Shown here piece after piece: positions 20,314-54,426 of a stretch of 54,426 nt of DNA (position 1 is the stretch's first letter; each line of letters starts with the position of its first letter). A program made the position numbers and the translations under genes. The notes below the pieces were generated by a model. It was not told the origin of the DNA. It saw only the letters and a list, made by a program, of their open reading frames with translations, and did not search any database. Location of the stretch: assembly GCA_964652755.1 (NCBI GenBank), contig CAZZBP010000006.1, positions 1 through 54,426 of the forward strand, written 5' to 3'. Origin of the DNA: an uncultured Dehalococcoidia bacterium (GTDB lineage: Bacteria > Chloroflexota > Dehalococcoidia > Lucifugimonadales > UBA826).

Positions 20314-21177
20314 TCACTGAGAATTATCTGTCAGGCCATTTAGTTTGGTTGATCGTTTTCGCCACGGAGAGTTCCTAGTGAAATTCATGAAGCTCTCATG
20401 TACAGGCGAAGCGGCGGCGATAATACCATCGGAATACAACCCAGCTCTATATCCGTTTCTATCAGTCACGACTCCTCCTGCTTCTTCCATTAAGACAAGC
20501 CCCGCGGCCTGATCATACGGCTGAAGCCCATGGTTAATATAGATATCAGACCTACCTGCGGCAACATATGACATACCAAGAGCGGATGAGCCCATAATTC
20601 GGGCAGTGTCTAGTCGGGGCCAAAGCTTTCTAAGCAATTGAATGGTGTTGATAGTCCCTTCGACGGGACCATTTGACGGGTCGACTCCCAAAACCGCGCC
20701 GTCAATTGATGGAAGTTCTGATACTCGAATCTGGGATTCATTCAAGTAAGCTCCCTTTCCCGATGCGGCATGAAACATCTCTTTATGGAGCGGATCATAG
20801 TTAACTCCCGTAATAACTTCACCGTCTTTCGCTAAGGCCACGACGATCGAAAAATATGGAATTCCGCGTGCGTAATTTTTGGTGCCATCTACCGGATCCA
20901 CAATCCACACCCAGCCTTCCTTCGGGTCATCGCCCTTTCCCTCTTCTCCAAAAACTCCATGGTCAGGAAAGTAATACAGTAATTCCGCTCTGATAAATTC
21001 CTCCGATTCCCTATCAACATTCGTAACAATATCGTTGTCACCCTTGTCTGATATTTCCTTTGTTTTTGGCCACCATTCCATCAGTATATCGCCCGCCTTC
21101 AACGTCACCGCTTGAGCGATGTCCCAAGCATTTCTACCGTCAGTTAATACAGGTAAATTCAACTTTGAATGTTGCAC
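20314..21177 (-). CDS. Inositol monophosphatase (SuhB-like) family protein
   Basis: GEE, WIVDPVDGTKNY, RIMGSSAL and QPYDQAAG motifs. GTG 21177 has GGAGGTG upstream. Confidence 0.9.
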   Translation of the reverse strand: MQHSKLNLPVLTDGRNAWDIAQAVTLKAGDILMEWWPKTKEISDKGDNDIVTNVDRESEEFIRAELLYYFPDHGVFGEEGKGDDPKEGWVWIVDPVDGTKNYARGIPYFSIVVALAKDGEVITGVNYDPLHKEMFHAASGKGAYLNESQIRVSELPSIDGAVLGVDPSNGPVEGTINTIQLLRKLWPRLDTARIMGSSALGMSYVAAGRSDIYINHGLQPYDQAAGLVLMEEAGGVVTDRNGYRAGLYSDGIIAAASPVHESFMNFTRNSPWRKRSTKLNGLTDNSQ

Positions 21178-21420
21178 TTGATAATCACCTCCTTCCAGTC
21201 CAACTATCTTCAAATTTACTGATTATGGCATTTACATAATAATTTGGCAGGATTATTCTCCAAATAAACGAATCCGATCTCATTTTTAGTCGTATATTTC
21301 ACTTAAAAGAGAGAATTGTATTTCATGAAGATTAAATTGTGCCTTTCTTGCCTTGAATCAGATTGACATCAAAATTCCCTAGTCTCCCCCTTGCGAGTTA
21401 TCAAAAGAGAGGTGTACAAA

Positions 21421-21666
21421 GTTAGGGTCCCTCAATGGCAAGAGGGAAGAACACTCCAGAGTCAGCCCGAGAATTGGGTTGTGGGGTTGGGAGAAACGGC
21501 GATAATACGACCCATCGCGTTAACCTTCCAAATGTATTCCGAGTGGCCACACCGAGCAAAAGCCGACACATAATCGGTAGAGCCGGAGAACGTACCGACT
21601 TAGCTGACAGGACCGCAACGGCGGATGATGGCGAGAGGCCCACAGTCCTCGTGCTCCCGCCCTAGC
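21421..21666 (+). ncRNA. Candidate structured non-coding RNA of unknown family, upstream of dnaA
   Basis: About 57% GC by hand count, next to an AT-rich upstream flank. Terminal helix GUUAGGG/CCCUAGC plus several nested helices whose G-U pairs only work on the + strand. Upstream TTGCGA-N18-TACAAA and a downstream T-rich tract. Confidence 0.5.
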
Positions 21667-21819
21667 TATAAAGCCTGTTTTCTTTTATCGACAAACGGGT
21701 AACGGAAAATAAGCGGGACCAGGGCCTTGAAACGTTTGCCTAGAATAGACGTTACAGGCCTTGCGGAAACACTCAGTTCGACTTCTTGAAAAAAGAAGTT
21801 TTAAAACCTTGGGTCCCTT

Positions 21820-21828
21820 TGTGCAAAA
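21820..21828 (-). promoter_or_regulatory. DnaA box upstream of dnaA (possible autoregulation)
   Basis: TGTGCAAAA is the reverse complement of a perfect TTWTNCACA match. A 1-mismatch box, TTATCGACA, lies at 21685-21693. Confidence 0.45.
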
Positions 21829-21851
21829 AAGCACCGTGAAAACTTGAATTA

Positions 21852-23255
21852 ATGGCTTCTGGAACTAACCAGCAGGCCGCGAGACTATGGCAGGCTGTTC
21901 TCGGTAAGATCGAGATGGCCATTCCGCGACCTAGCTTTGATACTTGGATAGCAGGCTCAGTCGGCGTCTCTTATGATGACGGCGAACTGCGAGTGTCTGT
22001 AAAAGACGCCTTTACGGCTAAATATCTGGAAGATAGATTGGTAGGGATAATTGAGACCGAGTTACGAAACGTCGGCGGAGAAGGCAACCATGTCACCTTC
22101 ATGGTAAATGGAGAACGCGCTCCAGTAAATACGGGCTATGGAGGCCATGAACAACCGGCGACTATCACCAATGGTCGGCCATCCACTGACGACCACTCCC
22201 TGCAACCGGAGAAAGGGCGGTTTTACTTACGTAGACCAGAGCTGAATTCACGTTACACATTTGATAGCTTCGTCGTGGGAGACTCAAACGAACTAGCCTA
22301 TGCTGCTGCCAAGGCTTCCTCTGAATCACCTGGCCACGCATTTAATCCTCTTGTCTTGTATTCAGGAGTCGGGCTGGGGAAAACACACTTACTTCATGCT
22401 ATCGGACATGTGGTTCGCAGCCAGGGCCTAGAGTGTGTCTACACAACCTGCGAAGAATTTACTAACCAGTATGTTAGCGCTATTCAACAGGGAAACACTG
22501 AACAGTTTCGCGACATGTATCGTTCTGCCGATGTTTTGCTTTTAGACGACATCCAATTCCTTATAGCGAAAGAGCAAACCCAAGAGGGGTTTTTCCATAC
22601 TTTCAACGCTTTACATATGGCAAATCGCCAGATAGTTATTACTAGTGATCGACCAATCGCTTCCCTCAGCGTACTTGAACCCCGCATAACATCTCGGCTA
22701 ATGGGAGGCCTAGTTGCCGATATCCAGTCCCCGCCTCTTGAAACCAGGCTCGCCATACTTCAGTCCAAAGCAAAACAACTTAAGTGCCACATTCCCACTG
22801 AGGTTTTGGAATTCTTAGCACAGCGGATACAATCCAATATAAGGGAATTAGAGGGAAACCTTAATCGGGTAGCGGCCTGGTCTCAATTCCGGGACGTGGA
22901 AATCACGATAGAGGATGTAGCCCGGATCACGGCTGGTACTTTGGGTCAGGGACGTGGAATAACAATAACTGACACAACAGTGATCTCAGCTGTCTCTAAT
23001 CATTTCGGGGTCGCCGCTGATCAGATCAAAGGGAAAAGTCGGCGTAAAATGACGGTCCTTTGCCGCCAAGTTGCTATGTACCTTCTTCGTGAAGAGACCA
23101 GTCTCAGTTTAAATGCTATTGGCAAACTCCTAGGAGGTAGAGATCACTCAACAGTCTTGCACGGCCACGAGAGGGTATCTTCACGCATAGAATTAGACGA
23201 TAGTCTTCGGGGAGATGTCTTAAAAATTCGGAATTCGCTATTGGGCGGATCGTAA
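21852..23255 (+). CDS. dnaA: Chromosomal replication initiator DnaA
   Basis: YTFDSFVVGDSN, Walker A GVGLGKTHL, LLLDDIQF, QEGFFHTFN, NIRELEG and domain IV GGRDHSTVLH. Confidence 0.98.
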   Translation: MASGTNQQAARLWQAVLGKIEMAIPRPSFDTWIAGSVGVSYDDGELRVSVKDAFTAKYLEDRLVGIIETELRNVGGEGNHVTFMVNGERAPVNTGYGGHEQPATITNGRPSTDDHSLQPEKGRFYLRRPELNSRYTFDSFVVGDSNELAYAAAKASSESPGHAFNPLVLYSGVGLGKTHLLHAIGHVVRSQGLECVYTTCEEFTNQYVSAIQQGNTEQFRDMYRSADVLLLDDIQFLIAKEQTQEGFFHTFNALHMANRQIVITSDRPIASLSVLEPRITSRLMGGLVADIQSPPLETRLAILQSKAKQLKCHIPTEVLEFLAQRIQSNIRELEGNLNRVAAWSQFRDVEITIEDVARITAGTLGQGRGITITDTTVISAVSNHFGVAADQIKGKSRRKMTVLCRQVAMYLLREETSLSLNAIGKLLGGRDHSTVLHGHERVSSRIELDDSLRGDVLKIRNSLLGGS

Positions 23256-23256
23256 A

Positions 23257-23910
23257 GTGAACCTTGTCTTAGTTCGTCATGGCGAGACTGAAGCCAATCT
23301 TACCATGCGCTGGTCAGGATCAAAGGATCTCACCATAACAAATTTGACGGACATTGGACGTATGCAGGCTACCAAACTAGGCCGTTGGTTCAAGGATCGG
23401 AGATTTACACCTACTCACGTATATTCAAGTCCACAAAAAAGAGCATACGACACTGCCCATTTAGCTGGCGGGCAGTGGGGTTTACCCATCACCAAAATGG
23501 AAGACCTACGGGAAACAGGTGCAGGAATCTTTGAGGGAATGACTTGGCCGGAGATTGAGGATCAGTATCCTAAAGAAGCAGAGCTGTTCCGAGACTCCCG
23601 AAACTGGTCATTCATCCAAGATGCTGAAAGTGAGCAAGGCCGTCGCGAACGGGGATCGCGGGTGTTACGCTACGTCATAGATAACCATTCAAACAACGAC
23701 ACAGTTGTCATGTTTGCCCACGCCGGCATCATACAGCAGGCCGTCAGCGCGATATTTGAATCACCCCGTTTGTGGGGACTTGCTGCGAGAAACACTGCAC
23801 TTTATGAATTCGCGATTGACGTAGAACATTGGGACGAAAACTCAAGTGTTAGGTCTAACCCTACAGCCTGGCGCATATTAAGATTCAACGAGCAGCCACA
23901 TCTGAGTTAG
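23257..23910 (+). CDS. Histidine phosphatase family protein
   Basis: LVRHGET, YSSPQKRA, LRE and AHAG. Starts 1 nt after the dnaA stop. Confidence 0.9.
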   Translation: MNLVLVRHGETEANLTMRWSGSKDLTITNLTDIGRMQATKLGRWFKDRRFTPTHVYSSPQKRAYDTAHLAGGQWGLPITKMEDLRETGAGIFEGMTWPEIEDQYPKEAELFRDSRNWSFIQDAESEQGRRERGSRVLRYVIDNHSNNDTVVMFAHAGIIQQAVSAIFESPRLWGLAARNTALYEFAIDVEHWDENSSVRSNPTAWRILRFNEQPHLS

Positions 23911-23941: not shown

Positions 23942-24601
23942 TCAGACTAGGTGACTTGAATCAGCAAACCGGCGAACCTCGAACCCACCAACATTCTGCG
24001 CTGATCCTCCCTGAGACCCTCTCAAGGAATTCGTTATGTCCCAAGCGTTGGGATCGATTCGGAAGTCAAAAACAGACGTGTTCGGTATTCGAAGCGCCCA
24101 CACCCTGTTCGTACCCATAATCACTGCTGTGATGAACATCATCAAGCCACTATGAGTGAAAGCTACTATTTCGTCATCTTTGTTATGGCCCTTGACAATG
24201 AAATCAACAACTGTCTGTGCACGTTTTCGGAAATCAAATCGTGACTCTGCGTTAGGCACAGAATTAAAACTACCAGTTCTTTGAAACTCTTGTGCAACTT
24301 CTGGATATTCCTTACGAATCTCATCCATAGTCTTTCCCTCGAAAATACCAGCTCCGCCTTCTTTCAAATCATCTATGGTGATAATTCTTTTAGCAGGCAT
24401 CACAATCTCAGCAGTGCCCAAGGCCCTTCTGAGCGGACTAGCGTAGACGAACCGGGGATCAAATTTTTCCTCGTTGAATCGACCTCTTAGTAGTTCAGCC
24501 TGCCGTCGTCCTTCGGCAGATAAATCAAAATCCAGTTGACCTTGCCATCTACCTTCCGCGTTGGCTACGGACTGACCATGTCTAACGATAACCACTCTCA
24601 A
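23942..24601 (-). CDS. Histidine phosphatase family protein
   Basis: IVRHGQS, YASPLRRA, LKE and THSG. Confidence 0.9.
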   Translation of the reverse strand: MRVVIVRHGQSVANAEGRWQGQLDFDLSAEGRRQAELLRGRFNEEKFDPRFVYASPLRRALGTAEIVMPAKRIITIDDLKEGGAGIFEGKTMDEIRKEYPEVAQEFQRTGSFNSVPNAESRFDFRKRAQTVVDFIVKGHNKDDEIVAFTHSGLMMFITAVIMGTNRVWALRIPNTSVFDFRIDPNAWDITNSLRGSQGGSAQNVGGFEVRRFADSSHLV

Positions 24602-54374: not shown

Positions 54375-54426
54375 TGGAGCCGACGGTCGGGTTCGAACCG
54401 ACGACCTGCTGTTTACAAAACAGCTG
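54375..54426 (-). tRNA. tRNA-Thr(TGT), 5' part beyond the window, CCA encoded
   Basis: Minus strand reads GCTGT-TT-TGT-AA-ACAGC (anticodon arm), GTCGG-TTCGAAC-CCGAC (T arm) and CGTCGGC-T-CCA. Confidence 0.93.

Follow-up and report, generated by a model that had tools for sequence, protein, structure and literature searches.

A structured 5' leader of dnaA as the probable identity of a GC-rich element in a marine SAR202 family

What is the GC-rich element that lies upstream of dnaA in an uncultured Dehalococcoidia bacterium? The DNA analysed is a contig stretch of 54,426 nucleotides (nt) (CAZZBP010000006.1; hereafter the window), which belongs to the marine SAR202 cluster (Chloroflexota, Dehalococcoidia) according to the titles of homologous-locus records. 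The element (21421-21666, + strand) lies inside a 638-nt intergenic region flanked by an inositol-monophosphatase-family gene and dnaA, and a sequence-only reading had folded it by hand into a multi-branch RNA, proposing an unannotated noncoding RNA (ncRNA) or a dnaA leader regulator. It is GC-rich as described (51-59% versus 29-37% just upstream). As an RNA feature the element is real: it is conserved and appears to be transcribed, but it is not a discrete 245-nt multi-branch ncRNA. On balance, it probably represents the 5' two-thirds of a structured 5' leader of about 430 nt on the dnaA mRNA of one SAR202 family. We infer that the leader probably tunes the amount of DnaA made. The leader half of the earlier proposal is supported by a fixed position, covariation, the strand preference of G.U pairs and contigs that bridge the element's end, while the stand-alone ncRNA half is not. 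The locus is laid out as follows.

20314-21213, - strand: inositol-monophosphatase-family gene, divergently transcribed (Pfam Inositol_P, 3.2e-61)
21322-21420, + strand: promoter/operator block kept in all 25 family dnaA-upstream regions, promoter role putative
21322-21329, 21363-21368 and 21386-21394, + strand: block motifs TTCATGAA, TTGACA and CCCCCTTGC, respectively
21391-21396 and 21415-21420, + strand: putative -35-like TTGCGA and -10-like TACAAA, with an 18-nt spacer
21852-23255, + strand: dnaA coding sequence, 467 amino acids (Pfam Bac_DnaA, 1.9e-58; Bac_DnaA_C, 2e-24; DnaA_N, 1.2e-6)

The position of the leader is constant across the family. A search with the DnaA N-terminus matched 26 of 29 family genomes and gave 25 usable upstream regions. 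All 25 carry a block of about 100 base pairs (bp) with fixed spacing (TTCATGAA...GAA...TTGAC...AAAT...CCCCCTTGC, 17-18 nt, GGTG-TACAAA), in which 30 positions over 73 nt are invariant in 24 of the regions; in conservation the block surpasses the leader RNA itself. Transcription would start at about 21424-21427. Used as a pattern, the block pulled in a further 42 metagenome and 20 genome loci, for a total of 87 leaders (55 unique) with the family regions. In each of the 25 family loci, the leader occupies the same place between promoter-like block and start codon, on the dnaA strand, and measures 198-481 nt. The distance from block to ATG falls into classes of 437-481 nt (genera g1, g6, g4 and g9), 377-410 nt (g8 and g10), 257-262 nt (g2), 230 nt (g5) and about 200 nt (g7). 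When 41 related genomes were searched with a BLAST-type method, the element was recovered only in the window's own genome (G000), in G001 of the same genus (at 90% identity) and in G013 of another genus, there as a piece of 44 nt. As it is single copy in G000 by the BLAST-type search, a mobile or repeated element was rejected.

Within the element, base pairs have been kept by compensatory change, if in few independent lineages. Helices were assessed in a MAFFT alignment of 17 long-leader sequences (16 distinct) from the four genera g1, g6, g4 and g9, with the pairing partner slid by 1-3 columns as background (36-46% paired). The nine hand-folded helices all exist at their coordinates, the 10-bp one interrupted by a single A.A mismatch; five of them persist across the four genera and the rest lie near background. 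The supported helices are H1 (80.0% of cells paired), UUGGGAG/CUUCCAA (79.4%), GCGAU/AUCGC (82.2%), AUGUAUUCCG/CGGAGAACGU (76.9%, with a constant core of only UCCG/CGGA) and GCCGA/UCGGU (73.8%). The closing helix (58.9%), GUCAGC/GCUGAC (51.0%), CCGA/UUGG (55.7%) and AGGAC/GUCCU (52.6%) are unsupported. Because these helices pair near the slid background, the multi-branch architecture proposed earlier finds no support, whereas a row of local hairpins does:

21428-21447, + strand: H1, hairpin UCCCUC/GAGGGA (81.9% paired and four of six pairs changed on both sides in a tighter alignment)
21454-21486, + strand: H2, variable hairpin with core CCCGA/UUGGG (mean z = -2.22 in nine lineages)
21487-21493 with 21525-21531, + strand: H3 outer helix, UUGGGAG/CUUCCAA (85.2% paired, one of seven pairs changed on both sides)
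21499-21503 with 21514-21518, + strand: H3 inner helix, GCGAU/AUCGC (89.6% paired, three of four changed on both sides)
21504-21513, + strand: conserved H3 loop, AAUACGACCC
21532-21593, + strand: helix AUGUAUUCCG/CGGAGAACGU enclosing H5, with a conserved core of only UUCCG/CGGAG (21537-21541 with 21584-21588)
21562-21578, + strand: H5, hairpin GCCGA/UCGGU (formed in eight of nine lineages, mean z = -2.53)
21594-21666, + strand: 3' third of the element (GCUGAC, AGGAC/GUCCU and the 3' arm of the closing helix), genus-specific with no conserved fold (mean z = -0.67)

The pairing counts are conservative since MAFFT places some hairpins out of register, namely H1 (in g6), the outer H3 helix (g9) and H5 (g6 and g4), by one to three columns; the 73.8% for H5 was reached despite a one-column shift in two genera. 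In a tighter alignment of the 5' half, H1 and the two H3 helices together are 85.1% paired versus 37-55% when slid, and 8 of 17 pairs show changes on both sides. As a register-free check, each alignment-delimited segment was folded separately in nine lineages. H1 forms a hairpin in all nine (mean z = -2.03). H2 is a hairpin in every genus, differing in length and sequence, and is kept in L043 via compensatory changes (GGCCC.../...GGGCC). For H3 (21487-21531) the mean z is -1.75, and a short-leader genus has a counterpart, GGAGAGG/CCUCUYC. H5 takes forms such as CCGACU/AGUUGG, GUCAACU/GGUUGAC and CGGCA/UGCCG, and the pairs of the UUCCG/CGGAG core are invariant or changed on one side only. Weak or genus-specific folds are seen in the H4 segment, in the AGGAC/GUCCU region and in the hairpin that closes the element on its 3' side. 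Across the supported helices there are 102 G.U cells versus 4 A.C cells, and the structure is therefore that of an RNA on the dnaA strand, as the sequence-only reading had held from G-U pairs in the window. The - strand of the element folds at chance (z = -0.06). A consensus scan of the - strand did list a promoter-like site and a terminator-like hairpin inside the element (21502-21531 and 21563-21577); the latter is H5 read in reverse, and the G.U bias speaks against any functional structure on the antisense strand.

The 3' limit of the element at 21666 is arbitrary, as conserved structure runs on to the dnaA ATG through the following features:

21676-21711, + strand: predicted stem with a T-rich tract as its 5' arm (GUUUUCUU.UUAUC...GGUAA.CGGAAAAU)
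21719-21765, + strand: predicted second spacer stem, CCAGGGCCUUG...CAGGCCUUG.G, inside the spacer alignment with z = -4.4
21780-21800, + strand: family-wide 3' hairpin GACUUCUU GAAAA AAGAAGUU, a covarying stem with a conserved A-rich loop
21806-21818, + strand: 3' box ACCUUGGGUCCCU, an ACC/GGU mini-hairpin (82.8% paired) or a tentative partner of the H3 loop
21820-21828, - strand: predicted DnaA-box match TTTTGCACA (consensus TTWTNCACA), 23 nt before the ATG

Relative to 200 column shuffles, the consensus energy of the element scored z = -2.2, that of the spacer -4.4 and that of the 3' domain -5.7, the last with a structure conservation index of about 1.06 over the final 130 or so alignment columns. 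The 120-nt spacer on its own folds with z = -2.14 (8 of 200 shuffles as good). The 3' hairpin is 100% paired in group A, with six of eight pairs changed on both sides, and 90.7% paired over 31 unique sequences from all leader classes, with four of seven pairs changed on both sides; folded separately by lineage it has a mean z of -3.13, and its stem appears as ACUUCUU/AAGAAGU, GUUCUUU/AAAGAAC, GCCUUUU/AAAGGGC, UGCUCCU/AGGAGCA and others. Collecting homologues and checking covariation, the course suggested when the element was first noticed, thus turned up two-sided changes in H1 (4/6), inner H3 (3/4) and the 3' hairpin (6/8). Every leader class except g7 has a common 3' domain consisting of the hairpin, the ACC...GGU mini-hairpin or box and then UUUGUG(C/U)AAAA. 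The gap from UUUGUG(C/U)AAAA to the ATG is 3-4 nt in short leaders and 23 nt in the window, and no GGAG-type Shine-Dalgarno (SD) sequence is visible before the dnaA ATG.

A covariance model of the 3' domain, R1, marks this family. In G000 it gives a single match (21768-21829, E = 5e-17; next E = 0.75). Over 151 genomes from 61 families of the order, it found G000 and three of the four other genomes of its own family; two weak matches lie outside the family (G172 and G116), neither at dnaA.

Contigs from three marine metatranscriptome runs (X1-X3; three study codes of the same year, possibly one campaign) suggest that the leader is transcribed. The runs hold 7-21% of the stretch's words, with contigs at 21449-21550, 21521-21870, 21557-21725, 21470-21646 and 21684-21834 and on parts of the dnaA coding sequence. 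Two bridge 21666, one of 350 nt from X1 (21521-21870) and one of 169 nt from X2 (21557-21725), and the first reaches into dnaA. No X1-X3 contig falls on 20314-21448 (the inositol-monophosphatase-family gene and upstream intergenic DNA), where missing coverage equals neither silence nor a start site. X4, for which the RNA label is a guess, covers only pieces of the inositol-monophosphatase-family gene. X1 and X2 also contain contigs (504 and 432 nt) in which a leader of g9 type (G019-like) is continuous with its own dnaA start; a second genus's leader is thus also present in RNA libraries.

Taken over the family, what stays constant is the promoter block together with H1 at one end and the 3' domain at the other, while the middle, most of the element included, has been remodelled, shortened or lost between genera. 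This modular pattern argues against a single ligand-binding aptamer and favors a leader that acts by general properties. Under this scenario, transcription would begin a few bases after the -10-like TACAAA of the family-conserved promoter/operator block and yield a single transcript from just after the block to beyond the dnaA start. The RNA would carry H1 at its terminus, then the local hairpins H2, H3 and H5 and two further stems (one with the T-rich tract as an arm), and would end in the 3' domain of A-rich-loop hairpin, short box and UUUGUGCAAAA upstream of an SD-less AUG. DnaA synthesis may then be set post-transcriptionally, with H1 protecting the mRNA at its 5' end and structure around the SD-less start region limiting or tuning ribosome access and so setting the initiation rate. 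The DnaA-box match beside the start codon may add classical transcriptional autoregulation. In long-leader genera, the H3 loop may also pair with the box about 300 nt downstream. Such lineage-specific additions would sit on top of the general leader properties.

Several observations weigh against a dnaA leader of this kind. A further leader class of about 330-345 nt has H1 and lacks the H3 core (L037, L063 and L055), and in three genera the whole leader measures only about 200-260 nt. Because the middle is not conserved family-wide, the reported element is dispensable for whatever the conserved leader ends do. The 246 nt of the + strand fold to a minimum free energy of -84.0 versus -75.9 +/- 5.2 kcal/mol for 200 dinucleotide shuffles (z = -1.56), only a marginal excess, as 16 of the 200 shuffles fold as well. 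The column-shuffle test scores both strands similarly and so does not resolve the strand, and the compensatory changes stem from about four genera and hence from few independent events. A family-conserved promoter-like block does lie directly upstream, where the sequence-only reading noted a sigma70-like promoter, but its TACAAA is without the usual final T and the consensus promoter scan did not list the site. The promoter block and UUGUGYAAAA, which are the motifs with the strongest conservation, could work at the DNA level alone. Lastly, contigs from RNA libraries show neither ends, strand nor a single transcript, DNA carry-over is possible, and those of X3 stop at 21646 and resume at 21684.

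A bolder version of the leader, which we regard as doubtful, is that a large RNA switch gates DnaA synthesis in the family. The H3 loop (GACCC, about 330 nt upstream of the start codon) would pair with the box by the SD-less start, and mutually exclusive UUCCG/CCGGA/UUCCGG pairings would answer a cellular signal, with a DnaA box on the same bases. The H3 loop AAUACGACCC (21504-21513) is complementary to GGGUC of the box (21811-21815), and over alignment columns where all 17 sequences are in register, the loop-box helix (21506-21513 with 21811-21818) is 87.4% paired versus 33-51% when slid, with three of eight pairs changed on both sides. Examples are AUGACCC/GGGUCAU in G004, GCAACC/GGUUGC in G019 and GCGACCC/GGGUUGC in G009. 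The loop-box score was reached by 2 of 500 shuffles. Counting against the pairing, its compensatory states come from two or three lineages. In an ungapped scan, the H3 loop is the best complement of the box in 9 of 17 sequences and the second best in 3, and is tied or beaten in the remaining 5, the window included. Duplex energies relative to 200 leader shuffles were significant in group A for G004 only (p = 0.005; L052, 0.055 at another site; G000, 0.27), the best site being in the H3 loop in three of nine group-A representatives. None of five group-B sequences was significant and, of the eight group-C sequences processed, only G042 was (p = 0.01, at an unrelated site); the duplex-energy test left out three group-C, two group-E and one group-D sequences, and in the other leader classes processed it gave no consistent partner for the box. 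The long-range pairing in long-leader genera is thus tentative.

The switch would also draw on the CCGG of the CGGAGAACGU arm, which can instead pair downstream (GCCG/CGGC type); two of four pairs of this alternative helix changed on both sides, and it has a C.C mismatch in the window. CCGGA (21583-21588) can pair with either the upstream UUCCG (21537-21541) or the downstream UUCCGG/CGGC (21596-21600). The upstream choice seems stronger in g1 and the downstream one in g6 and g9, which could make this an alternative-structure switch.

We consider it unlikely that the element is an independent small RNA of some 245 nt that shares the promoter, terminates at the T-rich tract and acts in trans or is an attenuated by-product. 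Such an RNA would account for a GC-rich block set off from AT-rich flanks, for the promoter-like block directly upstream and the T-rich tract that follows (21677-21688), and for the X3 contigs that end at 21646 and resume at 21684. However, no terminator-like site (hairpin plus T run) was found on the + strand over 21100-21950. The tract is not a terminator tail: it is predicted to form the 5' arm of the stem at 21676-21711 in four of five g1 sequences folded, and it is absent from the other three long-leader genera. In addition, the X1 and X2 contigs bridge 21666, that of X1 reaching dnaA, and conserved structure is unbroken to the ATG.

Conservation at the level of DNA only, whether as promoter, as operators for DnaA or another protein, or as part of an origin of replication (oriC), with no functional RNA structure, likewise has a low probability. 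In its favor, conservation is higher in the upstream block than in the transcribed part, the column-shuffle test is blind to strand, and a DnaA box adjoins the ATG. The DnaA-box consensus is TTWTNCACA (PMC5835720), and UUGUGYAAAA, read on the minus strand as TTTT(G/A)CACA, matches it; over 47 unique leaders, the match is perfect in 32, off by one base in 9 and by two in 6. By its sequence, then, a match to the DnaA-operator consensus appears to be conserved at the dnaA control region. In long-leader genera, the box bases also supply the 5' side of a short hairpin in the RNA (GUGC/GCAC). Leaders of g7 (L016, L019 and L026 from G018, G007 and G014, about 200 nt) are without UUGUGYAAAA. Their + strand has ATATCCAAA instead, which differs from TTATCCACA by two mismatches, lies about 31-35 nt before a TTG start and may be a DnaA box in the opposite orientation; a box-like motif in either orientation would suit a DNA site. 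Against DNA-level conservation alone, G.U cells outnumber A.C cells 102 to 4 in the helices, and two-sided changes keep pairing in H1, inner H3, H5 and the 3' hairpin. Only 2 boxes at no more than one mismatch were counted versus 0.94 expected in the 667 nt scanned (the intergenic region), and 4 perfect boxes versus 3.9 expected in the window. An oriC was rejected, as GC skew has no sign change at dnaA and no DnaA-box cluster is present.

Two features of the block bear on DNA-binding proteins. It has two palindromic motifs, TTCATGAA (21322-21329) and TTGACATCAA (21363-21372; TTGACGTCAA in G001 and G006), both upstream of the putative -35 box, which look like operator sites for regulators. Its -10 region, GGTGTACAAAG (21411-21421), resembles the ATG-proximal CTTTGTGCAAAA (21817-21829) through an inverted GYACAAAG and a direct GTGYAMAAA, and this likeness could mark two sites for one DNA-binding protein. 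If the transcription start lay further upstream, the two could instead pair the ends of the leader, and RNAalifold drew such a pairing.

That the leader is a riboswitch for a metabolite or other signal, or a landing pad for a small RNA or protein that would switch dnaA by alternative pairings, is improbable. The long multi-hairpin leader, the conserved H3 loop AAURYGACCC and junction AAUGUAUUCCG, the mutually exclusive CCGGA pairings (with upstream UUCCG or downstream UUCCGG/CGGC) and the candidate loop-box helix would all suit such a switch. However, no aptamer core is shared: the architecture differs by genus, one class is without H3 and short leaders keep only part. Neither a terminator nor an SD-sequestering platform is evident, and in most sequences the loop-box duplex does not stand out from shuffles. 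No known RNA family was matched either, in keeping with the novelty first suggested. At the gathering score, the only match to Rfam 15 in the whole window is a tRNA fragment at 54378-54426, with none in the element; at E<=10 over 21200-21900, there is one chance match to snoZ103, a small nucleolar RNA, outside the element; and for 12 relatives from the main leader classes, the dnaA-upstream loci give only one chance match, to a long noncoding RNA, at E<=1. The tRNA match is a gene on the - strand truncated by the window end (RF00005, 35 bits).

A small protein gene is very unlikely. Three open reading frames (ORFs) overlap the element, of 76 amino acids (21435-21665, + strand), 60 amino acids (+) and 73 amino acids (-), and all are open in G000 and in G001 of the same genus. 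All three are broken in close relatives: the 76-residue frame is frameshifted in L052 and both stopped and frameshifted in L043, the 60-residue frame has two stops in L072 and one in L043, and the 73-residue frame is frameshifted in L052 and L043. Counterparts of the three ORFs are absent in G013. The 76-residue ORF has no Pfam match, and its variable columns are spread 17:15:25 over codon positions. With its frame broken in L052 and L043, the codon-type conservation that would have spoken against an ncRNA is not seen.

That the element is a degenerate or atypical RNase P RNA, or belongs to some other known RNA family, can be dismissed: the short RNase P-like words reported earlier, which match independently of size, are meaningless, as bacterial type A RNase P RNA (RF00010) has no covariance-model match at the gathering score or at E<=10 over 21200-21900, and a check of the rest of G000 found a canonical bacterial type-A rnpB on another contig (C20:15230-15583, 310.8 bits).

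The surroundings of dnaA are atypical as well, in that rpmH-rnpA is not upstream. Downstream lies a histidine-phosphatase-family gene (23257-23910, Pfam match) and not dnaN, and an ORF at 23942-24601 (- strand) resembles a histidine-phosphatase-family gene by eye only.

Among known systems, the dnaA leader of Caulobacter crescentus is the closest analogue by role. Its 5' untranslated region (UTR) has 155 nt and helices P1-P6 supported by probing and covariation, is described there as without an obvious SD sequence, and has a stem near the start codon that inhibits translation initiation (PMC8443254). Both leaders are thus long, structured and SD-less, with structure near the start. For Caulobacter dnaA under starvation, the nutrient response was in the end mapped to the nascent N-terminus rather than the UTR (PMC8443254; earlier view, PMC4489657). 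As the two organisms belong to different phyla, the likeness is by role only, with no homology of sequence or structure expected. Unlike its Caulobacter counterpart, the SAR202 leader is about 200-480 nt long, modular and variable between genera, and has a family-wide hairpin with an A-rich loop and possibly a long-range loop-box pairing.

Stem-loops at the 5' terminus can stabilise bacterial mRNAs, as in the ompA leader. H1 likewise lies a few bases from the putative 5' end in every long-leader lineage.

In the autoregulation of E. coli dnaA, a 9-mer of the consensus TTWTNCACA is likewise conserved beside dnaA (PMC5835720). E. coli has a group of boxes between promoters, whereas the SAR202 leaders have just one, placed 3-26 nt ahead of the start codon and a long way downstream of the putative promoter.

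In the open-access literature searched, we found no description of an RNA motif linked to dnaA in SAR202 or Chloroflexi. The 3' domain captured by R1 is an un-catalogued RNA motif that marks dnaA in this family and a candidate for RNA family libraries, with a reach limited to one SAR202 family. This family would be the second lineage after Caulobacter in which dnaA has a long, SD-less, structured leader. The level of DnaA sets the timing of chromosome replication, and for its control in uncultured oligotrophs such as SAR202 the leader offers a testable handle, with defined hairpins, a loop-box pair and a DnaA box. If true, the RNA-switch reading would represent a new, lineage-specific class of RNA-based control over replication initiation in abundant, slow-growing marine bacteria.

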